DNA of 53,982 nt from an uncultured Methanosarcinales archaeon (GCA_964647565.1 CAZYIM010000004.1:44322-98303), one strand, 5' to 3'. Counted from the first letter of the stretch, positions 21,737 to 41,277 are shown. Notes: generated from the sequence alone by a model not told the origin. Translations and numbers: made by a program.

Positions 21737-21786
21737 GTAGGTAGCGAAATCCATGAGCGTTCCTGATCTGCAAGTCCAGTGGATTT

Positions 21787-21912
21787 GCGGGGGTGCCGGA
21801 GTGGTCAAACGGGCACGGTTGAGGTGTCGAAGACCCTGCCGCTAAAAGCGGATCTTCGGTTCAAATGCCGTGTGGTTTAGTACCTGCGCGAGTTCAAACC
21901 TCGTCCCCCGCA
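21787..21912 (+). tRNA. tRNA-Leu(GAG) with a 42-nt intron at 37/38 (21825-21866)
   Basis: Acceptor GCGGGGG/CCCCCGC, anticodon stem CACGG/CCGTG, long variable arm, T loop TTCAAAC; canonical BHB (TTGA/TCAA helix, GG^T and AT^G bulges, GTCGAAGA/TCTTCGGT intron helix); no encoded CCA. Confidence 0.95.
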
Positions 21913-21970
21913 GTAAACTAAGTTTACGAGGAGGGAGGGCGCCAGAAACTCTTTTTTTGGGTTTCTCTTG

Positions 21971-25202: not shown

Positions 25203-27893
25203 ATGAATGATAAAACACAGGTTGATTTTTCGAAGATAGCTGAGAAATGGCAGAAGAAATGGGCAGAGGCACGGATATTCAAGGTAAAAGAGGATCCCAA
25301 TAAAAAGAAATTCTACTGCCTTGAGATGTATCCTTATCCTTCGGCAACCCTGCACATGGGACATCTTAGGAACTATTCTATTGGAGATGCACTTGCAAGA
25401 TTTAAGCGTATGAATGGATTCAATGTCATCTATCCTATGGGCTATGATGCTTTTGGTTTGCCTGCAGAAAATGCTGCAATAAAACACAAGGTTGATCCTG
25501 AGAAATGGACATTATCTAACATTGAGAGTATAAAAGCCCAACAGCAAAAGATGGGTCTTTCCTATGACTGGTCAAGACAGATACAATCATGTGATGAAAA
25601 TTATTACAAATGGAATCAATGGATTTTTCTTAAGTTTCTTGAAAAAGGACTTGCCTACAAGAAACAATCTGCTGTGAACTGGTGTCCTGGGTGCCATACA
25701 GTTCTAGCAAATGAGCAGGTCATCGGCGGCCAATGTTGGAGATGCAAGGCTGATGTTGAGGAAAAGGCATTAGACCAATGGTTTTTCAAGATTACTCAAT
25801 ACGCAGAAGAATTGTTGCAGGATATTGATAAACTTGAGTATTGGCCTGAGAAAGTCAAAATCATGCAAAAGAACTGGATTGGCAAGAGTCATGGTGTTGA
25901 CTTGTTCTTTAAAGTCAAAGATAGTGATGTGGTCATACCTACTTTCACGACAAGGTGTGACACTATTTTCAGTGTGACTTTTGTAGTCATTGCGCCTGAG
26001 AATCCTTTGATAAAAGAGCTTGTGAAAGGTACCCAATATGAGGTGGAAGTAGAGAAACTCCTAAAAATTATTTCCAAACAGACAGTAATTGAGAGAACAA
26101 CAGAGTCTGGAAAGGATAAGTTAGGGTGTTTCCTTGGAAAATATGCTATCAATCCTGCCAATGGGGAAGAGATACCTATTTACATGGCTAATTTTGCATT
26201 GGCTGATTATGGTACAGGTTCAGTCATGGCAGATGCTCATGATCAAAGAGATTTTGAATTTGCAAAGAAATATGGCATACCTCTCAAATTTGTGATTTCT
26301 GATGATGGATCACCTATTAATCCTGATAAAGCATCAAGAGCGTTTCTTAATGATGGTATCTTGTATGATTCAGGAGAATTTTCAGGTATGCATAATCGTG
26401 ACGCACTTCCCGAGATGGCAGATTGGCTTGAGAAAACAGGTGGTGGCAAGAAGACCATAAACTATAAACTTAGGGATTGGTTGATATCCCGTCAGAGATA
26501 TTGGGGGACACCCATACCTGTAATCTACTGTGACGAATGTGGTGTTGTTCCTGTACCTTATGAAGATCTTCCTGTCAAACTTCCTAAGGATGCTAAATTT
26601 ACTGGCAAGGGAAATCCTATTCTTACATCAAAAAGTTTTATGGAATGCAAATGTCTTAAATGTGGCTCAGCGGCTAAACGAGAAAGCGATACAATGGACA
26701 CCTTTGTTGATAGCAGTTGGTATTTTTTGAGATATTGCAGTCCTAAATTTGACAAGCTGCCTTTTGATGGCTCTGCTGTTAAATATTGGATGGCTGTTGA
26801 TCAATATATAGGGGGTATAGAGCACGCAATTCTTCATTTGTTATATGCAAGATTCTTTACAAAGGCGCTTCGTGATCTTGGATTACATAAAGTGGACGAA
26901 CCGTTTGCCAGACTGCTTTGTCAGGGAATGGTCATTAAGGATGGCGCTAAGATGTCGAAATCATTAGGTAATGTTGTTGATCCTGCAGAGATAATGGATA
27001 AATACGGTGCAGATACTGCCCGTTTGTTCATACTGTTTGCTGCGCTTCCTGAAAAAGAACTTGATTGGTCTGATCAAGGCGTACAAGCTAGCTATAGATT
27101 CCTCAATAAGGTATATTCCCTTCTTGAAAAGGTCGAGTATAGATCTGAAGCCAGCAACAAGGACTCTTTTATTGAGAGTAAGATGCACAAGACCATAAGG
27201 ACCGTGTCTGATTACATTCAGGATTTCAAGTTCAGCCTTGCAATCGGTGCGATAATGGAGTTTGTGGGTGCCTTGCAGAACTACAGAAAAGAGCCCGTCC
27301 AAAAAAATATATATGCTGACGCAGTCAAGACAACACTGCTTTTACTAGGTCCTTTTGCACCTCATGTCTGCGAAGAGATGTGGGAAGCAACAGGTAATAA
27401 AAGTTACATCTCTGTTGCAGATTGGCCCAAATTCGATGCCAAAAAGATTGATGAGAAAGCAGAGGCTGCAGAAGAGATGGTTCATACACTTAAGTCTGAC
27501 ATCAATACAGTAAAGGAGCTTCTTAATTTTGACAGTTTAAAAAAGGTGCAGATCATTGTCAGCGCCTCCTGGAAGTTTGATTTCATGAGACTGTTCAAGG
27601 AAGAGCTTGCAAAGACAAGAGATGTTTCTGAGATTATCAAGGTTCTGATGCAGACAGATCTTAAGAGATACGGCCAAGAGATTTCAAAATTAGTGCCTAA
27701 ATTTGTGGCAGACCCAGGCAAGATATCTGACGTTGTCCTTGATCAGGACAGGGAGATCAAACAGATGGAAAGCCATATAGATTTCCTTAAGGAAGAGTTC
27801 TCAGCAGAGATTGAGGTCATAAAAGCAGAAGACTCCCAAGAGCAGAAAGCCAAAAGTGCCATGCCAGGCAAGCCAGCAATATTGGTGGAATGA
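25203..27893 (+). CDS. leuS: Leucine--tRNA ligase (bacterial-type core, archaeal-type C-terminal domain)
   Basis: [48 protein letters not shown]-terminal [11 protein letters not shown]. Confidence 0.97.
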
Positions 27894-27912
27894 TTAATTC
27901 TTATAAGAAAAA

Positions 27913-28223
27913 GCACGCCCAAGGGTGGACACAGAGCAAAGCAGACAGTGATCTTGACTCTTCCTCAATCCCGCTACCCCCAAAGCACCGGTGTTAATAT
28001 TTAGAGCTGCTTCATTCCTGATCTCTTGAGTGCGTTAGCGCGAAAGATTCAGTGAATCTCTGATTCTAACGCATGACTCAGTTCATAAAAACTCCGACCA
28101 ATGAGGACAGGACGTCGTAGTCCAAGCCAAGGCCGTATACCCTGACCATGCCGCCCCTTAGGCTTCGACCCACCCGTGAGGTCCGTTTGATGTTACAGGG
28201 TAGGACCAGTACCCCGGTCTAGC
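27913..28223 (-). ncRNA. ffs: Signal recognition particle (7S) RNA, interrupted by a 50-nt BHB intron
   Basis: Archaeal 5' GCTAGACCGGGG...CCCTGTAAC Alu motif, GTCGAAGCC.AAGGGGCGG paired with 3' CCACCCTTGGGCGTGC, helix 8 TCAGGAATGAAGCAGC; TATA TTTATAAA upstream, U-tract downstream. Confidence 0.92.
28025..28074 (-). other. Putative archaeal BHB intron within SRP RNA helix 8
   Basis: TGAG/CTCA central helix, 3-nt bulges TC^A and AG^A, intron helix TGCGTTAG/CTAACGCA. Confidence 0.8.
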
Positions 28224-28277
28224 AATCTAAGGAAGATTTTGGTGTTTATAAAGGTTTTTCTGAAGCTAGCTCCTAAA

Positions 28278-28383
28278 GCTTTTATTTGGTGGCTTTTGTC
28301 TGTTTCTTTTATCGCGTGTTTTTCCGATTTATTATGATCTCTAGCCACTATCTTGGACTCCGCATGGCGCCAATAATAAAAAC
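28278..28383 (-). ncRNA. Candidate structured small RNA, element C (divergent relative of A and B)
   Basis: TTTTATT..TTGG/CCAAATAAAA terminal stem, GTGGCT/AGCCAC, internal AATCGG...CGAT; own TATA (TATATAAA about 28404-28411). Confidence 0.35.
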
Positions 28384-28449
28384 TGTCATTCTCTCTCGAA
28401 AGATTTATATATCTTTATGTGTAAAATTCAGTTAAAAAAGAGGGTTTGT

Positions 28450-29151
28450 ATGAAAAAGAGTGAGAGGGAGTTAGTAGATTACATTAGAGACCAGCTTCAT
28501 AAAGGAATAAGTCGTAAACAGGTTCGTGCTGTTTTATTGAGGGTAGGACATAGTGTTGACTCTATCAATGTAGCTCTTGATAAGATACATGCCGCAGAAA
28601 AGAAAAACAATATTCTGTTTGGTGCTATTGCGGCTGTCGCTCTCTTAATGGTCTTGGGTTGGATATTCTTTGGTTTTATAGCTTCACAACCCACATATCT
28701 TTTAGAGAAACCCTCTTTAAGAGACAGAATAAATGCTTCTGGAGATGACGTGAATATTGATAAAGGCATGCAGGAAGCTGCTCTTGAATCTGGAGATGTT
28801 GAGCTTTGTGAGGGTGCGGGAACATATAGAGATAATTGTGTAATATCTGTGAGCGTCGATACTCAAGATGAGGATACATGTAAACTTTTAGAAGATAATA
28901 ATCTTCGGGCAACCTGTTACTACAAGATTGCTATTTCACTAAAAACTATCTCTCTATGTTCATTGAGCGGTAAATTTGAGGAGCAATGCATGAGTGAGAT
29001 CGCTTTGTTGACTTATAATCCTGAGATCTGCAGCAAGTTGACAGAAAAGAAGGATTCCTGTTTTAACATGCTTGCTTTGTTGACCAAGAACAAGGCCTTG
29101 TGTGAGCAGGCAGGACAATTTAAGCATAATTGCGTTAGGATGATAGGATGA
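28450..29151 (+). CDS. Single-TM protein: cytoplasmic helical domain plus extracellular Cys-rich helical repeats
   Basis: YIRDQLHKGISRKQVRAVLLRVGH, TM, repeated C-x(7-10)-C units; paralogous to 31316-31786. Confidence 0.75.
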   Translation: MKKSERELVDYIRDQLHKGISRKQVRAVLLRVGHSVDSINVALDKIHAAEKKNNILFGAIAAVALLMVLGWIFFGFIASQPTYLLEKPSLRDRINASGDDVNIDKGMQEAALESGDVELCEGAGTYRDNCVISVSVDTQDEDTCKLLEDNNLRATCYYKIAISLKTISLCSLSGKFEEQCMSEIALLTYNPEICSKLTEKKDSCFNMLALLTKNKALCEQAGQFKHNCVRMIG

Positions 29152-31315: not shown

Positions 31316-31786
31316 ATGCCAGAAGAAGCTTTAAACTATATCAAGCGGAACCTTAAGAAAGGTCACTCTGAAGCTAGGATAAAGAAGGCCTTGACCAAGG
31401 CAGGGCACTCAGATAAGGATATTCAATATTATTTTAAGAAGCATCGTTCTACAAAGAAGCATAAACAAGCAACCTTTGTTGTTTTCTGTACCATCCTCGC
31501 CATTATAGGTATTGTTTTGATAGCGATAGGTGTAAGCCTGGTTGTAAAGAGGGAAACTCGACAGAGCACGCCAGAACTGCCAGTGATTCAGGAAGATCCT
31601 CAGGCTAATGATTTGATCGGTGGGCAGTTGCAAGTTACAAAAGCACAGTATAATGATTATTATAATACCTTAAACACAGCAGCCATACAAGAAGACATAT
31701 CTCTCTGTAATCGACTTACCATAGAATCTCTACATGAGAAATGCTTGGAGCTTTATCCTATAAAATTAGCAGAAATAAAAAGATGA
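31316..31786 (+). CDS. Single-TM protein, paralog of 28450-29151
   Basis: YIKRNLKKGHSEARIKKALTKAGH, TM, one Cys pair; ATGA overlap with the giant gene. Confidence 0.75.
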   Translation: MPEEALNYIKRNLKKGHSEARIKKALTKAGHSDKDIQYYFKKHRSTKKHKQATFVVFCTILAIIGIVLIAIGVSLVVKRETRQSTPELPVIQEDPQANDLIGGQLQVTKAQYNDYYNTLNTAAIQEDISLCNRLTIESLHEKCLELYPIKLAEIKR

Positions 31787-34700
31787 ATAAGAATACATTA
31801 TACAAAAGGTTAACAACATTATTCGTAGTTAGCTTGCTTTTAATTGTATTGTCTTATTCTGCAACTGGTGAGTATTATCCTACTATGAACACTGATGATC
31901 CTGATTGCACTGATAATTATAATGATGAGGATTGGTTGTGGGCTTGCCAGACGTTCCGATCTGGATGTAATGCTGTTTATTGTACTGATGGTAGCTGTGA
32001 TTGTAACATGGGTAATAATTGTTGTTGCACCCAGGAGATATGTACTGATAAACTGGACAATGATTGTGATGGTGGCACAGACTACTGCGATAGTGGGTGC
32101 GGTTGTCCTTTTGGAAGCGAGTTTGGATGCACAGCTTGTGCTCGATGTACTGTTGACTCGGCAACAGTAGTAGTAGGTGAGCCCGTAACCTTCACTCTTT
32201 TCATAGGTTTTGGAACTGCACCCCCTAGTTCGAGAATACAATTTGGTGATGGCGCATCTTCTGTTGGCAGTTATGGGTCTGGTTCGACTGTTGTCCATTC
32301 ATATAATAACGTTGGAACATGGGATCCCTATTTTGAGCCTGTGGTCACTTTTCAAGAAACAGGCAGCTCAATAAGCTGTCCTACAATCACAGTCGAATCA
32401 CCTGATACAACACCTCCATCTACTCCGACTGCTGTGAGTCCTTCTGGATTTACCACAGACCATACTCCTGCCTTTGATTGGACTTCTTCAACTGACGCGA
32501 GTGGAATTGATTACTATCAGGTGAGGTGGCATTCTGGATATGGTTGTTCAAATCAGATTAGTTCTGTAAATACAGCTAGCACTACCACTAGCTATACAAT
32601 AAGTACATCAATGTCAGATGGTAGCTATTCTTTTGAAGCCAGAGCAAGAGATAATGGAGGTCTTTGGAGTAGCTTTAGCAGTTGCATGGACTTTACTATA
32701 ACTACTGTTCATGACTGCAACTGGTGTATGCAGTGGAACAATGATCCTTCGAACTGTCCGTCTGGTGCATCTGAGGATTGTTGGTATTATTATTCAGACA
32801 ATTACTGTCTTAAGAAAACAATGGTCTGGGACGGCGGGAGTTGTGTCAATGCACAATCCTGTACTGATGATGAAACTCCAAATAACTTATACAGCAGGGG
32901 TAGTGCAACTGGAAATCTTGAATATAGCTTATTATCTGGGACTTATCAGGACTCTTGTTCATCTAATGGCATTGGAAGCGAACCAGACATTATACAGGCT
33001 GATTGCACCTACAGATCAGGATCAGATATAACCTTTGTAACTTATACCAACAATGATAACTGTTTTAGTTCTATAAGTTGGGATGCAAATTATGTTTGGG
33101 CGCAAGGCGCTGTATGCAGAAGTGGTGCTTGTGCAAGTTGTTATCCATCTGATGGCAGCAAGACATGCTCTAATGATGGCAATTGTAATCTTATCTCAGA
33201 CAATGTGTGGTTTAGCTATACAGTGGATGCCATGCGACCTATGAGATGCGAACCAGAAATGCAGTGTACCAATGGCCGTTGTTGTGAACTTGGCGAGGTA
33301 TGGTCTGGTTCGTCTTGTGGAACTCCGCCTCCTCCGCCTCCTCCGCCTCCCGCTGCACCGACTGTTGATTCTTTGTATTGTCCTGGGTGTTTGCCTGGAC
33401 AGTGCGAGGTTAGATTCACTGACAATTCCAACAATGAAGATGGCTTTAGATTGTATGTATCCTCTGGTCAGAACTGGGGAGATAGTCCTAATTGGGGATC
33501 TGCAGTTTTAAGAACAATCCATTTCTCTATTGGGGGAACTGGATCAACAAGTACTATGACTGATACAAGTAATAATCAACTATATCCTACAAGCTATTGC
33601 TACTGGATAGCTGCTTACAATGCTGGCGGACAGTCAGGTGTTGTACCTGCTGGCTGTGACTTCTTTTTTAATAATGTTGCCAACCTTCGCAGCACCGGCC
33701 AATCGACTAATTCATTAAATTGGGCATGGGATGCAGTAAGCGGGGCAACAGATTATCGAGTATTAAATGATTGTTATCTTGGTTTAGGTCTTCACTCAGG
33801 AACAACATGGACCATGAACCAAAATTGGGAGTGGAACGGCTTTGGTTGGTGCGGGAATAATTTATTAAACTTGGCAGATGGAACATCTTATCAAATATCC
33901 TTGATTCCTGAACGATGGGAGAGTGGCAGCCTGGTCAATAGTGGTTGCATGAGCGGATTTGCAGGGGGTACCACTGACACAGTAATTCCTGTTCCTGTAA
34001 CATCACTTACCTGTCCTACTAGTTCAGATTGGAGTGACGCAGGCCATAATACAGCTACCTTCTTAGCTACCAACAGCCCAGATGCATTTGAATGCAGTAT
34101 CGACAGTAATCCCTGGGTAGCATGTTCAAGTCCCCAGGCATATCCCTCCCTTAATAGTCCTAGTAATCCATCAATGCATTCTTTGCGTGTCCGGGCACAT
34201 AATAGCCAAGGTTGGGGTAGTGCTGCCCAATGCAGCTGGTGGATTGGTATCAGTCCGAGTGTAAATTCAATGATTGTTGAAGGTACACCAAGATCAACTA
34301 TAGTTGATGGCTCAAATGTTATCCAGAGCTATGTACCTAATAGTGATGGGACAGTTGATATCTCCTGGACTGTTTCAGATAATTCTGGAGGCCAAAGTGC
34401 CAATTCAGGAGTCCAATATGTCAGAGTTCTTAGATATAATAACCAAGGGGGTTTTCCTGGATCGCCTGATTTGGCTACAGAAACTGAAGTAACTGTTGCT
34501 ACTGCCCCTGCCAGCACTTACACCTGGTCAAGTTCTTTTACAGATGGTTCTTTGGCTTCAGGCATCTACTGGTATTCTATTGAATTAAGAGACAATGCCG
34601 ATATTGATACAACTCCATCTGTAACCTTGGCACCTATACCTGTACAAGTGACTCTTCCACTACCTCCTGTGGCTGATTTCTCATATTGTAAGCTTAGCCA

Positions 34701-37700
34701 GACTGCGACAACAGTGGACATAGAGTTTTCTGATCTTTCGACGAATACACCTACTAGCTGGGATTGGGATTTTGGTGATGGTTCGTCGCATTCTTCTTTG
34801 CAGAATCCTGTCCACACATATAACACAGGATCAGGAGGGCAGCCTGCAAACTGGTGGAATGCTTTGTGGCTATCCAGGATTAATGTCACTTTTGATATGT
34901 CTGGAATTTCTGAGAATCTAAATAATGTGCCTGTATTGGTTGAGCTTGATTCAACAAGGGTGGAGTACTCAGAGATTCTTCCTAATGGTGATGATATACG
35001 TGTTATTGATGATGACGGCACCGTACTAGATTATGAGATTGAAAAGTTCGATTCATCTGGCACAACTGTTTTATGGGTGAGGATTCCTTCAATTACAGCT
35101 TCTGAATCAGAACATGTTATTTGGATCTATTATAACAATCCTGTTGCTGGGGCGGGAGAGGACGCTCAAAATGTGTGGACAAACAACTATGTCAATGTCT
35201 GGCATTTAGGGGGTACGGGTAATGATCAGGTTTGGGAATCAGTCAGCGGTAGTTACAGAGAACCCATAGATTCAACTTGGAACTGGAACTCAATAGATGG
35301 AAAGATTGGCAATGCTCTTGAGAGGCAGTTTGTCCAGAATAGTCCTTTTAGATGCATAACTTCTGATCAACAGTCACTAGACGACTATACAATACAGTTT
35401 TGGTACAAAGGTATACCTGATGGAAATCCTGGATTTCAATACAATGGTCTGATTGTCTGGGCTACTAATTGGCAAAGCTTAGTGATTGGATCTTGGCTAC
35501 CCAATGCAAACACGCCGCATTATTTGGATTTTGTGTCTTTTAATTTTATTGGAGGATATATTCAACGTGAATTCCTTACTCCTTCAAATATTATTGGAGA
35601 CCATACATGGGATATGATGACTGTTGTAATGGATTATCAAGGTGCTCCGCCCTATGAAGATGAGACTACGGTAAGAGTGCTCAGGAACGGGCAGGCTCTC
35701 ATTAATCAAAACTCAAATTTTTATTATGATAATGCAGGTTCTGATACTGGTTTTCTTAAGTTAGGAACTTGGGGGCAGTTAGATCAGATGCATTCTTTGA
35801 TAGATGAATTCAGGATATCTAGTGTTCAAAGAAGTGATAATTGGGCTGCATTCCAATATTGTGTTATGGAGGGCGGTTGTGTCAGTTATAGTCAGAATCC
35901 TGCAAAAGCACTAACCTTAATCGCGACTAATGTTGCTGGTTCAGATAGCGAAGTAAAGCCATTTGATCCAAGTTCGGTTCAATACTGTCCTGGAGCCCAA
36001 CCTCCTGTGGCTAATTTTTCATATTGTAAGCTTAATGAGACAGGTACGACTGTTGGTATTGAATTCACTGATCTTTCAACCAGTAATCCGACTTCTTGGG
36101 ATTGGGATTTTGGGGATGGCACACCTCATTCTTCCTTGCAGAATCCAGGACATACTTTTTCTGTTAGTAGCAGTAGTGCTTTTTTTGGTGATGGTTCTGA
36201 TGGTAGTGTTGTCATAAATGGGCCTGTTAATATCAATACTCAGACGATTACAGTTAGTAGATCTGAACCTGATGGTGTTGTTTCTGTTGTTTCTGATGTT
36301 GGTGTTAATTCTGTTACTGTTGCTGATGCTAGCGGGTTTTATACTGACGATATGGTTTTGCTTATGAATTTACAGGGTACTTCTGGGGATAGTGTTAATG
36401 TTGGTAATTATGAGTTTATTCCTGTGGCTTCTGTTGTTGGTAATGTAATTACTTTTACTGCAGATATTGCTCAGACTTATGGTAGTCCTGCTTCTCAGAA
36501 TATTATTCTACAAAGAGTACCGCAATATGATGATGTGACTGTTACTGGTAGTGGTGTTTTGACTGCTAATGGTTTTGATGGTTCTACTGGTGGTGTTGTT
36601 GCTTTCTTTGCTAGTGGCACTTTAAATGTGCAATCTGGTGGCAGGATTGATGTTAGTGCTAGAGGTTTCAGAGGTGGTAGTTCGTCTGGGCCTGAAGGTC
36701 ATACTGGCAGGACCACTACTGGTGGTGGTGCTGGCGGAAGCGGTAGTGCAGGTGAGCCTAGCGGTGCTGGTTATGGAGGTGATGGCATAGCAACAGGTGG
36801 TGGTGCTGGTGGCGCAGGCGGTATTTCTGGAAATGATTGTCCTCCGAACGGTCGTGTTAACCATGCTGGCGGAAATGGAGACTCTGGCGGTGGAGATGGT
36901 GGAGATGCTGGATGTCAGAATGATCCTGGTATTCCTCCAGCTACTCCTATTTATTGGAATGGCGGATCTGGTGTAAGTGGAAGTTCAACTTCCCCTGGAA
37001 GGGGAGGTGGAGGTGGCGGAGGTGGCCCTTCAGCAGGTGGTGCTGGCGGTGGTGCAGCCCCTTTTAATTCTGAAACCAATGATGCAACTGCTACTCTCTC
37101 AAGAATAATGCTAGGCGGTGGCTCCGCAGGTGGTGCTGGCGGTGGAGGCGCAGGAGGATGCGGCCGAAGTGGTACTAATGGAGGTGCAGGCTCAGGAGGA
37201 AGTGCAGTGGGTACCCCTGGAAGCGCAGGTAGCAATTCTCCTCAATGTAATGGTCCTTTTGCAACTGCGGGGACTGTTGGAGGTAGTGGAAATGCTGGCG
37301 GTGGAATGGTCATGATTATTGCGGATACTGTTAATATCGTAGGTACTGTAAACTCTAATGGTGGACAGGGTGGTGCTGGAGGTGACGGTGGTGACGGCGG
37401 CAGTGGTGGTGGCGGAGGCATTAACAATGGCGCTGGTGCTGGAGGTGGCGGCGGTGCTGATGGTGCAGCTGGCGGAAGTATTTATATTTATGGTGATACT
37501 GTTGCTTTAGGTTCAAATGATGTTATAGCTACGGGTGGTGCTGGTGGAAGTGGTGGAACTGGCGGTAGCGATGGCAATGGTTGGAATGCTGACAGCGGTA
37601 GCGGGGGGAATGGTGGTTCTGGTTCATCAGGATCTGTTGGTAAGATTGCTGTCAAGGGCACAACTTCTGTTACTGGTAACACTAATCCCGCTTATAATGT

Positions 37701-40700
37701 TGCTGCAGATCCTCATATAACAGATACTAGTGGAGGCTCAACTTTTAATGTTGTTTTGGATGCTACTAATATTGACGGTTTTGATAGCGAAACCAAGATC
37801 ATTAATCCATCCGCAGTTCAATACTGCCCTGGAGCAGCTCCTCCTATTGCCAACTATTCTTACTGCAAACTGAGTGAAACTTCCTCTACAGTGACTGTCA
37901 AGTTCAATGATACATCCACCAACAATCCTACTTCGTGGGACTGGGACTTCGGTGATGAATCTTCACATGGAACTGTGTCTGATCTTACTCATAAGTACGG
38001 TAGGTTTATGTTTGAATCCTGGCCAACCAGATTAAGGATAACTTATAACACTGCTTCTGCTAACGCATTGCAGGACGTTCCTGTCTTAGTTGAGTTGACA
38101 CCTGGACTTATCGATTATAATGATTTTAAATCTGGTGGCGCTGATATAAGATTCACAGATTCTGATGGTAATACAGAGCTTGATTATGAGATTGAACTTT
38201 GGAATCCTGGCGGTACATCTATCATCTGGGTTAAGATACCTTCAATAGCTGCTTCAGAGACAAGCCATTCAATATGGATGTATTACGGCAACAGCAATGC
38301 CAATCCTGGCGAGAATCCATCAGGTGTCTGGGATGATAATTTTGTTGGAGTCTATCATCTGGCAACTCCCGGAGCAATTGCTTATGACTCGAAGAATGGA
38401 TACAATGCCGATGTCCGTGCAGACAGGCCGAACAGATATCCTGGTATGTTCGGAACAGGTTATAGCTATCAGCTTAATTTAGATAGCTACGCAGCTAGTA
38501 GGGCTCCAAGAGGTGTTGGGACTATGGAGGCATGGATTAATAGGAAATGGGCCAATGATGATCCCAATGACTATGGAATTGCAGCTGTCTATTGGGCTAA
38601 TGATATGTGGAGGATGATGTGGAGAGGAAGCACAGCTAACTGTGGCAGGCATTTCTGGACAGAGGCCCGTTCAGCTGATTATGGAGTAGCTTGGTGTGAT
38701 GGCTGCACTGATCATGTCAATGTCTATCCAGAACAAGGAGTCTGGGGTTATCTTGTAGGAACTTGGGACAGCTCATATGTCAGGACATATGTTGATGGCC
38801 GTAGATGCGGATCTGTGGGAGGGATAGCTCCATGGACCCAAGCCCCTCTCCGATGGAGAATGGGCTGGCACAGCACTTCATCGGGTACTTTTGATGAGTT
38901 GAGAGTATCCAATATTGCTCGATCTCAAGACTGGATAGACTTCCAGCACTGTGTCATGACTAGTAGTTGTACAAGTTATGGATCTCCTGCAACAGTAACA
39001 GTGGATAATCAGTTTGATACTTCCTTGACTGCAACGAATCAAGGTGGCTTTGATACAGAACTAAAAACAATTGATTTGAATACAATACAAGATTGTCAGT
39101 TTGTTCAGCCTCCTGTTGCTAACTATACCTATTGCAAATTAAATGAGACGCCCATTAACATGACGATTAATTTTAAGGATATTTCAACCCACACATCCAC
39201 TGACTGGGATTGGGATTTTGGGGATGGAACAACAGATAACGGAACTCAGCATCCTGAGCATACATATGCAGATACAGGCAGTTATGACTCTGGTAAGATT
39301 GATGCTGCAATGGGAATGGATCCCAGCTTTGACGAGTGTTATATTATATTTAATCCCGCTTCTTGCACAGGCTTTAACTATACTGCTGTTTGCGAAGAGC
39401 CTTCATGTACCTATCCTCCTCTTCCCTGGAAAACATTATTTGCAGTTAGAACAGATGCTATTCCTACACACTGGCCTCTTCAAGGCTATAATACAACTAA
39501 TATATTTGGATACGGAGTTTTAATTGCTAAATTTTTCTGGTTTGAGCGCTATGTACCGCAGGATATTTCTCCTGGAGACTATTATGTTGAAATAAATGCC
39601 TTTGGAGAGATTGGTGAGGATGATGAGATCGTAACCATAAGCATAAATGCTGATCAGAACCAGACATCTGGAGATATATGGGATGCTCCTGACTGGGGTC
39701 ATTACTCCCAGAAATGCGTCTACCCGAACAAGTTCACCATAGTACCCGGTGATAAGATAAGGTTCTCTGCTAGGGAGAATAATGGCAGCATTCACTATGA
39801 CTGGTATAGGATAAAAGCCCGCATTGAGCCAGGAGATATAAGCTGTGCAACTGGAAATCCTCTTGTGCCAGGGCCGCTCAATGTAGAATATAATGTTACC
39901 TTGGCAGCCACTAATGCTGCGGGAGCAGATAGCGAAAGGAAGGAGATCAATCTGACACAGGTATCCTGGTGTACTGCACCTCCACAGACAGTTGCTGATT
40001 TCAGCTATTGTATGTTGGGAGAGACTGTTGATACTGTAACCATACAGTTTACTGATACTTCCACACAGAATCCCACTGGATGGTCATGGAACTTTGGTGA
40101 CAGCCACACCAGCATTTTGCAAAATCCTGTGAATGTGTTCTTAAGAGGCACGTATAATGTTAATCTCTCTGTGACTGCAGCATATTCAACTGACTCTGTA
40201 CTCAGGAATATAGCTGTGAATGATGCTCCGCTATGTTCAGATCCATCAAATCTGCCACCCAACAAAAAAATCCTGATAATTACAGACGGCACAACTAATA
40301 CTTTGATTGATGGGTCTCAAGATCAAGATCTGGCTGTCCAGGAAGCCCTGACTCATGCATGCAGCAGCAATGCCAATTCAGCCAAATCATTAGGTGTGCC
40401 AATATTTATAATAGGAATAGGTCCTGATCTGGCTAACCAGACACATCTAGAGCGTATCGCGAAATGTACAAATGGCGAATACTTCAGGGTGGACAGCAGT
40501 ATTACGATCCAACAAGTCAGGGATAAGATTTTCAACTGGCTCTTTGCTGAAGAATTCCCTACAACATCAATAGATGTGTCTGCGGACTCTGTAGGTGAAT
40601 GGGATATGAGCAGAATGCAGGTTGCAGATGTGAGATGGTCTGATGATATGTGTGCTGAAAATCTTACTTATTGCATAGGTAATGATCCTGGTTTTACATA

Positions 40701-41277
40701 TGTTGGCTGTAGTGACTTTAGAACAGGCCTAAATGCTTATATCAATGCTCAGTGCAATAATGTTGTAGGCTGCACTGTTGAGGTACCGATCAATATCAGC
40801 TCACCGACAAGGGGCAATCTAACCCTTTATGAATTCTCGATTGAACTGCCTTGTTGTCAGGAGAATGCCACTTGCCAAAGATTTGATGATACCCTAGAAG
40901 GGATTTATGGGACCTGCTGCCATGATGATACATATTATCAAGCAAATAACTATAGGATGTACTGTAGTATGGGCATAGATGATACAACCATATTAGGAAC
41001 CGAAGGCCACTGTTGTCGCTTAGGATTTTATTGGAACTCTACACTTAACAGGTGTATTAATGCTACAACCTGTTTTGACCTTCCATGTCCGCATCAATAC
41101 AACTCAATAGAGTATTGGAAAACTGGCAACTGTTTCATCGGCAACAGTTCAAGCTCACACATCAGACCTTTCGAAGGTTCTTGTTGTCCAAATTTCAGGT
41201 ATGGATATCCCTATATGGCCACTCCCATTGCAGATTTCAGATACTACTATGATCCTGTTCAGATTTATCTGAGCTAA
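31783..41277 (+). CDS. Giant (~3,160 aa) secreted multidomain surface protein: Cys-rich, FN3/Ig, 5 PKD-like, 2x DUF2341+LamG-like, Gly-rich, C-terminal part of a vWA domain
   Basis: Signal peptide from MNKNTL; WDWDFGDG repeats; DIR..D.DG..LDYEIE..W(V)(R/K)IP DUF2341 motifs; DEFRISS/DELRVSN LamG ends; ILIITDG...IFIIGIG vWA half. Confidence 0.9.
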   Translation: MNKNTLYKRLTTLFVVSLLLIVLSYSATGEYYPTMNTDDPDCTDNYNDEDWLWACQTFRSGCNAVYCTDGSCDCNMGNNCCCTQEICTDKLDNDCDGGTDYCDSGCGCPFGSEFGCTACARCTVDSATVVVGEPVTFTLFIGFGTAPPSSRIQFGDGASSVGSYGSGSTVVHSYNNVGTWDPYFEPVVTFQETGSSISCPTITVESPDTTPPSTPTAVSPSGFTTDHTPAFDWTSSTDASGIDYYQVRWHSGYGCSNQISSVNTASTTTSYTISTSMSDGSYSFEARARDNGGLWSSFSSCMDFTITTVHDCNWCMQWNNDPSNCPSGASEDCWYYYSDNYCLKKTMVWDGGSCVNAQSCTDDETPNNLYSRGSATGNLEYSLLSGTYQDSCSSNGIGSEPDIIQADCTYRSGSDITFVTYTNNDNCFSSISWDANYVWAQGAVCRSGACASCYPSDGSKTCSNDGNCNLISDNVWFSYTVDAMRPMRCEPEMQCTNGRCCELGEVWSGSSCGTPPPPPPPPPAAPTVDSLYCPGCLPGQCEVRFTDNSNNEDGFRLYVSSGQNWGDSPNWGSAVLRTIHFSIGGTGSTSTMTDTSNNQLYPTSYCYWIAAYNAGGQSGVVPAGCDFFFNNVANLRSTGQSTNSLNWAWDAVSGATDYRVLNDCYLGLGLHSGTTWTMNQNWEWNGFGWCGNNLLNLADGTSYQISLIPERWESGSLVNSGCMSGFAGGTTDTVIPVPVTSLTCPTSSDWSDAGHNTATFLATNSPDAFECSIDSNPWVACSSPQAYPSLNSPSNPSMHSLRVRAHNSQGWGSAAQCSWWIGISPSVNSMIVEGTPRSTIVDGSNVIQSYVPNSDGTVDISWTVSDNSGGQSANSGVQYVRVLRYNNQGGFPGSPDLATETEVTVATAPASTYTWSSSFTDGSLASGIYWYSIELRDNADIDTTPSVTLAPIPVQVTLPLPPVADFSYCKLSQTATTVDIEFSDLSTNTPTSWDWDFGDGSSHSSLQNPVHTYNTGSGGQPANWWNALWLSRINVTFDMSGISENLNNVPVLVELDSTRVEYSEILPNGDDIRVIDDDGTVLDYEIEKFDSSGTTVLWVRIPSITASESEHVIWIYYNNPVAGAGEDAQNVWTNNYVNVWHLGGTGNDQVWESVSGSYREPIDSTWNWNSIDGKIGNALERQFVQNSPFRCITSDQQSLDDYTIQFWYKGIPDGNPGFQYNGLIVWATNWQSLVIGSWLPNANTPHYLDFVSFNFIGGYIQREFLTPSNIIGDHTWDMMTVVMDYQGAPPYEDETTVRVLRNGQALINQNSNFYYDNAGSDTGFLKLGTWGQLDQMHSLIDEFRISSVQRSDNWAAFQYCVMEGGCVSYSQNPAKALTLIATNVAGSDSEVKPFDPSSVQYCPGAQPPVANFSYCKLNETGTTVGIEFTDLSTSNPTSWDWDFGDGTPHSSLQNPGHTFSVSSSSAFFGDGSDGSVVINGPVNINTQTITVSRSEPDGVVSVVSDVGVNSVTVADASGFYTDDMVLLMNLQGTSGDSVNVGNYEFIPVASVVGNVITFTADIAQTYGSPASQNIILQRVPQYDDVTVTGSGVLTANGFDGSTGGVVAFFASGTLNVQSGGRIDVSARGFRGGSSSGPEGHTGRTTTGGGAGGSGSAGEPSGAGYGGDGIATGGGAGGAGGISGNDCPPNGRVNHAGGNGDSGGGDGGDAGCQNDPGIPPATPIYWNGGSGVSGSSTSPGRGGGGGGGGPSAGGAGGGAAPFNSETNDATATLSRIMLGGGSAGGAGGGGAGGCGRSGTNGGAGSGGSAVGTPGSAGSNSPQCNGPFATAGTVGGSGNAGGGMVMIIADTVNIVGTVNSNGGQGGAGGDGGDGGSGGGGGINNGAGAGGGGGADGAAGGSIYIYGDTVALGSNDVIATGGAGGSGGTGGSDGNGWNADSGSGGNGGSGSSGSVGKIAVKGTTSVTGNTNPAYNVAADPHITDTSGGSTFNVVLDATNIDGFDSETKIINPSAVQYCPGAAPPIANYSYCKLSETSSTVTVKFNDTSTNNPTSWDWDFGDESSHGTVSDLTHKYGRFMFESWPTRLRITYNTASANALQDVPVLVELTPGLIDYNDFKSGGADIRFTDSDGNTELDYEIELWNPGGTSIIWVKIPSIAASETSHSIWMYYGNSNANPGENPSGVWDDNFVGVYHLATPGAIAYDSKNGYNADVRADRPNRYPGMFGTGYSYQLNLDSYAASRAPRGVGTMEAWINRKWANDDPNDYGIAAVYWANDMWRMMWRGSTANCGRHFWTEARSADYGVAWCDGCTDHVNVYPEQGVWGYLVGTWDSSYVRTYVDGRRCGSVGGIAPWTQAPLRWRMGWHSTSSGTFDELRVSNIARSQDWIDFQHCVMTSSCTSYGSPATVTVDNQFDTSLTATNQGGFDTELKTIDLNTIQDCQFVQPPVANYTYCKLNETPINMTINFKDISTHTSTDWDWDFGDGTTDNGTQHPEHTYADTGSYDSGKIDAAMGMDPSFDECYIIFNPASCTGFNYTAVCEEPSCTYPPLPWKTLFAVRTDAIPTHWPLQGYNTTNIFGYGVLIAKFFWFERYVPQDISPGDYYVEINAFGEIGEDDEIVTISINADQNQTSGDIWDAPDWGHYSQKCVYPNKFTIVPGDKIRFSARENNGSIHYDWYRIKARIEPGDISCATGNPLVPGPLNVEYNVTLAATNAAGADSERKEINLTQVSWCTAPPQTVADFSYCMLGETVDTVTIQFTDTSTQNPTGWSWNFGDSHTSILQNPVNVFLRGTYNVNLSVTAAYSTDSVLRNIAVNDAPLCSDPSNLPPNKKILIITDGTTNTLIDGSQDQDLAVQEALTHACSSNANSAKSLGVPIFIIGIGPDLANQTHLERIAKCTNGEYFRVDSSITIQQVRDKIFNWLFAEEFPTTSIDVSADSVGEWDMSRMQVADVRWSDDMCAENLTYCIGNDPGFTYVGCSDFRTGLNAYINAQCNNVVGCTVEVPINISSPTRGNLTLYEFSIELPCCQENATCQRFDDTLEGIYGTCCHDDTYYQANNYRMYCSMGIDDTTILGTEGHCCRLGFYWNSTLNRCINATTCFDLPCPHQYNSIEYWKTGNCFIGNSSSSHIRPFEGSCCPNFRYGYPYMATPIADFRYYYDPVQIYLS

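Follow-up and report, generated by a model that had tools for sequence, protein, structure and literature searches.

Can the gene for an archaeal SRP RNA be interrupted by a tRNA-type intron, placed at the site to which SRP54 binds? The question is raised by a locus in the window, by which we mean the whole 53,982-base stretch of DNA analysed here. It comes from the metagenome-assembled genome of a small uncultured marine archaeon (2.68 Mb in 86 contigs, 86.9% complete). The original prediction read a 50-nt BHB intron into helix 8 of an SRP RNA on the minus strand and guessed at a DPANN source, a guess that fits the labels Woesearchaeota, Nanoarchaeota or Nanobdellota (DPANN) on the records of the organism's relatives. 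Our analysis leaves us confident, if short of certain, that 28074..28025 on the minus strand is a true archaeal BHB intron inside an SRP RNA gene.

That the host is an SRP RNA, as had been proposed, is apparent from an Rfam scan run at an E-value threshold, in which RF01857 (archaeal SRP RNA) matches the gene over all 317 model positions with 94.4 bits and an E-value of 6.9e-22. The gathering cut-off of this family is 96.5 bits, so the gene is missed by a standard Rfam scan; at gathering thresholds there were zero Rfam matches across the 53,982-base window, and the suggestion that such genes could escape Rfam holds true for this one. The gene scores below the cut-off, yet its homology to SRP RNA, judged from that E-value over model positions 1-317, is not in doubt. 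Intron-less relatives reach 97-177 bits. In the RF01857 alignment of the unspliced gene, the 5' strand of helix 8 is for the most part represented by forced deletions; the helix 8 site (UCAGR ... GNAR loop ... AGCAG) is present only across the exon junction. The elements of the gene and of the insertion, with what each rests on, are the following.

28245..28252, minus strand: TATA-box-like element TTTATAAA, presumed promoter (read from the sequence)
27907..28229, minus strand: SRP RNA gene, precursor of 323 nt (RF01857 match, model positions 1-317)
28075..28229, minus strand: exon 1, 155 nt, with the Alu domain, the helix 5 5' strand, helix 6 and the start of helix 8, ending ...GAACUGAGUC (MAFFT alignment, nhmmer half-match)
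28084-28081, minus strand: exon helix strand GAAC (sequence)
28077..28080, minus strand: BHB central helix, 5' strand UGAG, in exon 1 (sequence, covariation)
28074..28076, minus strand: 5' bulge UC^A, predicted cut at 28075/28074 (sequence)
28025..28074, minus strand: predicted BHB intron, 50 nt (50-column gap in 30/30 relatives, BHB geometry)
28066..28073, minus strand: intron helix h', 5' strand UGCGUUAG (8 Watson-Crick pairs with 28038-28031)
28043..28061, minus strand: inner intron hairpin AGAGAUUCA-C-UGAAUCUUU (fold; related hairpin in similar introns)
28031..28038, minus strand: intron helix h', 3' strand CUAACGCA (sequence, fold, covariation)
28027..28030, minus strand: BHB central helix, 3' strand CUCA, in the intron (covariation, RNAalifold)
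28024..28026, minus strand: 3' bulge AG^A, predicted cut at 28025/28024, then GAUCAGGAAUGAAGCAGCUC (sequence)
27907..28024, minus strand: exon 2, 118 nt, AGAUCA-GGAA-UGA-AGCAG-CUC (rest of helix 8) and the helix 5 3' strand (alignment, nhmmer)
27908..27912, minus strand: run of five U at the 3' end of the gene, presumed terminator (read from the sequence)

The element TTTATAAA precedes the Rfam match by about 16-23 nt, has a purine-rich stretch just upstream of it and is presumed to be the archaeal promoter of the gene; the U run at 27912-27908 is likewise presumed to be an archaeal terminator. On the plus strand, a gene for leucyl-tRNA synthetase (25203-27893) runs convergently towards the 3' end of the SRP RNA gene. 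A few kilobases from the SRP RNA gene, a 3178-aa open frame occupies positions 31741-41277 of the window on the plus strand.

Read in minus-strand order, the insertion and its borders run GAAC-UGAG-UC^A-UGCGUUAG-AAUC-AGAGAUUCA-C-UGAAUCUUU-CGCG-CUAACGCA-CUCA-AG^A-GAUCAGGAAUGAAGCAGCUC, and the sequence and its parts (a 4-bp helix, 3-nt bulges, a strong intron helix and a weak exon helix) are just as first described. All 12 pairs of the central helix (4 bp) and the intron helix (8 bp) are Watson-Crick, and the exon helix is weak, with a C-G pair, an A.A mismatch and then A-U, G-C and U-A. Cuts after the second base of each bulge take out 28074..28025, or 50 nt; as intron and exon 2 both start with A, removing 28073..28024 yields the identical product. 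Each unpaired triplet of the BHB lies 3' of its central-helix strand, and triplets so placed on each side are the arrangement of pre-tRNA. The insertion interrupts helix 8 in its 5' strand, bordering on the conserved UCAGR...GGAA...AGCAG site.

Folding energies are of little use here. The local fold z-score of the insertion region is only -1.95, and helix 8 is not cleanly reproduced by minimum free energy folds of either the entire precursor or the joined RNA; these folds were set aside as evidence because the internal loops of helix 8 are non-canonical. Other kinds of interruption were also considered. No group I or group II intron family of Rfam matches positions 27700-28500 at E <= 10, and 50 nt is too short for an intron of either group. 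A permuted circular SRP RNA of the Thermoproteus type is ruled out, the gene being collinear with the model and with its relatives. No second copy of the intron was found in the source genome, where the best other match is 15 nt long (E 0.079).

The borders of the insertion can be defined by relatives, independently of any folding. SRP RNA matches were found in 38 of 40 same-order relatives, each drawn from another family, and their full-length matches measure 264-276 nt as against 323 nt here (two shorter matches are cut off by contig ends). When the gene was aligned by MAFFT with its 30 best relatives, a single 50-column gap appeared in all 30, and the proposed insertion into helix 8 at the SRP54-binding site is borne out. 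The gap is bordered by ...GAACUGAGUC (GAGUC) on one side and AGAUCAGGAAUGAAGCAG... on the other, and the sequence that it leaves out, 28074..28025, is the one delimited by the BHB-predicted cuts. The nearest flanks among the relatives, UUUUUAUGAACUGAGUC|AGAUCAGGAAUGAAGCAGCUCUAA in G005, are like those of the window's gene.

We then built a profile HMM from the 30 intron-less relatives and scored precursor and joined exons with nhmmer. The precursor is matched in two separate halves (93.0 and 85.7 bits; alignment positions 4-156 and 206-321), whereas in silico joining of the exons yields a single unbroken match of 198.6 bits, so that removal of the 50 nt does restore an SRP RNA as claimed. When the deletion was shifted by -1, +1, ±2, ±3, 5, 10, 20 or 30 nt, the best score remained that of the predicted cut: 198.6 bits at shifts 0 and +1 (the same sequence), 194.4 at -1, 193.3 and 192.7 at +3 and +2, 189.6 at -2, 187.0 and 184.6 at +5 and -5, and, at the lowest, 143.7 at +30.

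The motif taken alone is not rare in this genome under lax criteria. A lax BHB scan of both strands of the 2.68-Mb genome returned 20163 BHB-like matches, of which 3219 equal or exceed the window's motif in quality when G-U pairs are allowed, or about 2e-6 per combination of position and length. The significance of the BHB thus lies in its coincidence with insertion borders that were set by alignment, independently of folding; from the genome's own hit rate, the chance of a BHB falling on either of the two possible registers of that insertion is roughly 4e-6.

Could the 50 nt have come from mis-assembly or faulty binning? We give this practically no credence. The genome is, to be sure, metagenome-assembled and in 86 contigs, and no positive support for an artefact was found. 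An assembly error as the source of the insertion is rejected by a contig from DNA run X4 that is identical to the window across 27995-28169 and covers the whole intron and both junctions with zero differences, so the 50 nt are real DNA; similar same-site inserts in other genomes and contigs, described next, also speak against it. The stretch itself is present in six DNA runs, from marine and seawater metagenomes.

The main weight of the evidence is replication in other genes. The pattern that we used fixed exon bases, the A that opens the intron and the AG that closes it, and nothing else, so that pairing was left free; it was scanned over one genome per species for 185,579 prokaryote species and over metagenome contigs. 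The species genomes returned 34 matches, comprising 13 archaeal SRP RNA genes and 21 bacterial chance matches. Among the 13, the central helix forms four of four pairs in 12 and three of four in one, with intron helices of 3-8 bp; the chance matches reach at most three of four and at most 1 bp. On metagenome contigs, 7 of 56 matches were an SRP gene with a BHB and 49 were neither, several of the seven being near-duplicates of each other or of a species genome. The BHB fold is therefore found in all 13 species genomes and all 7 contigs and in 0 of 70 chance matches, and a survey of related SRP genes, proposed at the outset, has added same-site introns from 13 more species genomes and 7 metagenome contigs. 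These introns are 28-50 nt long.

Eleven of the 13 species genomes are labelled Woesearchaeota, Nanoarchaeota, Nanoarchaeia or Nanobdellota, and two Methanosarcinales. The two latter genes (L049 and L062) have 273-nt SRP exons of Woesearchaeota type together with the same-site intron. The labels of these two bins are probably wrong, a suspicion based on the 78% identity of the L049 exons to those of the Woesearchaeota-labelled L050.

An alignment of 14 intron-bearing SRP RNA genes (A1) was examined for covariation. The BHB central helix is paired in 98.2% of cells, with compensatory change in three of its four pairs, and the outer 4 bp of the intron helix are likewise paired in 98.2%, with compensatory change in all four; the tRNA-type BHB first proposed for one gene is thus kept by compensatory changes in 14. 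Mature helix 8 is paired in 100% of cells, with compensatory change in five of seven pairs. Pairing falls to 15-38% when the partner strand is slid by 1-3 columns, and the observed BHB covariation score is equalled in none of 500 shuffles; kinship among the 14 sequences means that the shuffle significance is overstated, while neither the slide control nor the count of 0 among 70 chance matches is affected. Additionally, RNAalifold without a given structure returns the same central helix, 3-nt bulge and intron helix. The bulges are UCA in 14/14 and AGA in 14/14, but the search pattern itself demanded GTCA and AGAG. The exon helix is paired in 53.6% of cells, with compensatory change in none of its four pairs. 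Because only its C-G pair is invariant and one of its positions never pairs, we would class this BHB, with its partial exon helix and 8-bp h', as lying between the strict hBHBh' and relaxed forms.

One strand of the motif has two partners. In mature RNA, the G-A-G of UGAG pairs with CUC of exon 2 instead of with the CUCA of the intron, and in A1 columns 10-12 show covariation with columns 61-59 of the intron as well as with columns 85-83 of exon 2. Covariation of UGAG with two alternative partners is expected of an intron and is needless for a branch that stays in the RNA. This bears directly on the idea of an expansion hairpin, in which the 50 nt would branch off helix 8 and stay in mature SRP RNA, an idea that we regard as very unlikely. 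The insert alone does fold into a stable hairpin, the exon helix of the BHB is weak and the one RNA contig that skips the 50 nt comes from a relative. A retained branch, however, has no need to pair its 3' end with exon bases whose partner in the mature helix is exon 2, whereas here intron-exon pairing covaries and always comes with two 3-nt bulges, over lengths of 28-50 nt. Further, it is the conserved UC|AGR strand of the SRP54 site that the insert breaks in two; going by match length, this strand is in one piece in 134 of the 139 genomes of the order with an SRP RNA match. The insert is present in some species of one genus and absent from others, with no compensating change in the exons.

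The contig just mentioned comes from a sediment metatranscriptome (X8) in which a small share of the stretch is present. It is 165 nt long at a depth of 6.6 and follows 28189-28074 with 6 differences and then 28023-27978 with none; at the joint 50 nt are skipped, and, with one ambiguous base, the result equals the predicted product exactly. It differs from the window at 6 of 116 exon-1 positions, and its source is a relative about 96% alike, the DNA of which was not found; that relative's gene may simply lack the intron. A more distant relative (about 89% alike) has an intron-less sequence in the DNA of run X7. An exact 21-mer of exon 1 had zero matches in metagenome contigs, and run X9, labelled a metatranscriptome, had zero matches to the stretch. 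We take the X8 contig to be compatible with splicing and not decisive.

Is the interrupted gene the one that the cell uses? It could be a disabled or redundant copy, either a decaying pseudogene or a gene whose RNA is cut without re-ligation, with an intact SRP RNA gene in the unassembled 13% of the genome. The completeness of 86.9% and an Rfam score under the cut-off leave some room for this, but we consider it highly improbable. The exons are intact and, joined, reach the full score given above against the relatives' profile, the ligase gene rtcB is present in the source genome, and the pairs of mature helix 8 are kept by compensatory change within the intron-bearing genes. Moreover, the second SRP RNA gene on which the original prediction might have foundered was sought and found neither in the source genome (one match, the interrupted gene, in 86 contigs at 86.9% completeness) nor in near-complete carriers: G127 (99% complete), G167 (98%) and G196 (97%) each have a single SRP RNA match, the interrupted one, and G139 (92%) likewise has one match only.

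The enzymes that a spliced SRP RNA would call for are encoded in the source genome. EndA is of alpha type and only one gene was found, a 238-aa open frame (L032:1474-2190, minus strand) that holds both the N-terminal and the catalytic domain, with PF01974 at 100.7 bits and PF02778 in the same ORF; homomeric EndA of the alpha type prefers strict motifs. RtcB scores 580.3 bits in a frame without a stop. For SRP54, the M domain reaches 111 bits, in an open frame of 454 aa. A search of the source genome (86.9% complete) for SRP19 found none, but it also missed Sulfolobus among the control genomes. The lone alpha-type EndA and the missing SRP19 are points against the intron, as are the weak exon helix and the frequency of BHB-like motifs under lax criteria. 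The EndA locus (L032, G000:C4:17659-20919) encodes a lysine-rich N-terminal extension of about 65 residues and its head-to-head neighbour is a gene of the metallo-beta-lactamase fold with a weak match to tRNase Z; if that match holds, two tRNA-processing genes lie side by side.

Among the tRNA genes, tRNA-Leu(GAG) at 21786-21913 of the window (plus strand) has a canonical 42-nt BHB intron at position 37/38, with the central helix UUGA/UCAA and an intron helix of 8 bp. ARAGORN without intron mode finds zero tRNA genes in the window, and this tRNA-Leu is found only with intron mode. Across the source genome, Rfam finds 10 tRNA genes and ARAGORN 8 without and 18 with intron mode; nine of the ten Rfam genes exceed 73 nt, some being long-arm Ser tRNAs. 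A strict BHB was seen in 3 of 17 ARAGORN intron calls by a simple scanner that is blind to very short introns. Many tRNA genes may be absent from the bin or disrupted beyond what these tools can read.

How widespread is the interruption? In a sample of the order, 139 of 151 genomes have an SRP RNA match, and five of these have an insertion by match length: the window's genome (G000), G139 (323 nt), G127 (320 nt), G070 (298 nt) and G136 (295 nt). These tallies include two unpublished genomes, G111 and G131, both with genes of ordinary length; no other result draws on them. By alignment, the intron of G139 and of G127 is at the site of the window's gene; G139 belongs to one family with the intron-less G008. 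In a phylum-wide sample, 142 of 151 genomes have a match, and the long genes are the window's and those of three species of genus g128. Three of nine g128 species (G127, G167 and G196) have the intron at the identical site, and the six others, together with G237 of genus g180, have no intron at that position. In the other orders of the class, gene length is 263-276 nt in all 29 genomes with a match. From these surveys of length and alignment in the order and phylum samples, the intron is sporadic, polymorphic inside one genus and, in these samples, confined to one order.

Five genomes of the order (G021, G040, G051, G056 and G075; 91-100% complete) had no SRP RNA match at E <= 10 that we could accept, the single 10.9-bit match among them being rejected for lying inside a coding region. 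Their SRP RNA may be more interrupted, divergent or unassembled. Two other loci stood out in passing: a fragmentary SRP RNA match in two pieces, model positions 10-64 and 104-268 (G151:C77:5083-5297), and a much shortened single match of 140 nt (G223:C19:693-832).

The remaining two insertions of the order sample define a second site in helix 8, GGAAUGAA|GCAG, with an insert of 22 nt in G070 (L036) and of 21 nt in G136 (L037). These are also BHB motifs, with the central helix AAUG/CAUU and the bulges AA^A with AG^G (G070) or AA^G (G136), and their intron helices differ from each other compensatorily (UAAGC/GCUUA and UGGG/CCCA). G136 shares a genus with the intron-less G001. On the evidence of sequence comparison, then, there are at least 20 such predicted genes at the first site, and two at the second, in Woesearchaeota-labelled archaea.

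Some of the same-site introns are alike in their interior as well. Introns of 48-50 nt that share GCGYUAGAAUC-AGAGAUUCACUG... and have the conserved core ...UAGAAUCAGAGAUUCACUG... include those of the window's gene, L043, L044, L059, the L087 group and L127, and also L121, L128 and L129. They are 61-84% identical to each other, as against 55-66% for the surrounding SRP exons, which suggests either that their interior is constrained or that the intron has moved between genes. One could go further and suppose that the intron is a mobile RNA element that passes from one SRP RNA gene to another (reverse splicing and recombination with an excised circle being two conceivable routes), or that the excised, probably circular, RNA is itself functional. 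This idea is speculative and we are inclined to doubt it. Either way, if it were true, EndA/RtcB splicing would be an obligatory checkpoint that couples SRP assembly to tRNA splicing.

The reading that we prefer, an intron removed by the tRNA-splicing enzymes, would work as follows. In the primary transcript, UGAG at the end of exon 1 would pair with CUCA at the 3' end of the intron, forming a 4-bp central helix between the bulges UC^A and AG^A that would be buttressed by the 8-bp intron helix and the weak exon helix. The tRNA-splicing endonuclease EndA would cleave both bulges, and RtcB would ligate the exons and probably circularize the intron. The freed UGAG strand could then re-pair with CUC of exon 2, allowing helix 8 to form with the conserved UCAGA / GGAA / AGCAG site for SRP54. 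We infer that the RNA of this organism is actually spliced, that it is the joined RNA that functions and that SRP54 would be unable to bind the precursor. Very probably, then, the SRP of this archaeon cannot be built without the tRNA-splicing enzymes.

These findings matter in several ways. First, SRP RNA would join the short list of archaeal RNAs with tRNA-type introns, namely tRNA, rRNA and one mRNA. Second, the protein-binding site that holds the intron is the most conserved one of the RNA, and a universal machine of protein targeting would thereby come to depend on tRNA-splicing enzymes. Third, on the practical side, a gene under the Rfam cut-off means that standard annotation reports no SRP RNA in such genomes. 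Finally, two sites, at least 20 carriers and presence or absence within a genus make a usable system for studying the gain and loss of archaeal introns.

How does the locus compare with systems already described? Archaeal BHB introns are found in tRNA, rRNA and, in Crenarchaeota, the cbf5 pre-mRNA, and are cut by EndA and joined by RtcB. A full-text literature search, with subscription-only papers outside its scope, found no published account of a conventional intron in SRP RNA. The nearest precedent is the circularly permuted SRP RNA of Thermoproteus tenax and T. uzoniensis. According to Plagens et al. (2015, eLife, PMC4731332), a BHB formed by leader and trailer is processed so that the tip of helix 8 is restored, and a 'simple BHB intron' is proposed as the origin of the permuted genes. 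If our reading is true, the window's gene would be an example of that postulated ancestor, and a living one. It differs from the Thermoproteus genes, as portrayed there, in being collinear (model positions 1-317 in order) where theirs are permuted, and in that an internal 50-nt piece would be removed here whereas the transcript ends are joined into a circle there; the lineage here is Woesearchaeota-labelled (DPANN), not Thermoproteales. As in archaeal tRNA introns, a 4-bp helix stands between two 3-nt bulges, with the predicted cut after the second base of each bulge, and as with archaeal BHB introns generally, the inserts are small (21-50 nt here) and EndA and RtcB are encoded in the genome. 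The tRNA-Leu gene in the same window carries the canonical form of the same motif. Unlike the known BHB introns, those proposed here have SRP RNA as their host, lie in the SRP54-binding helix 8 and have a weak exon-exon helix.
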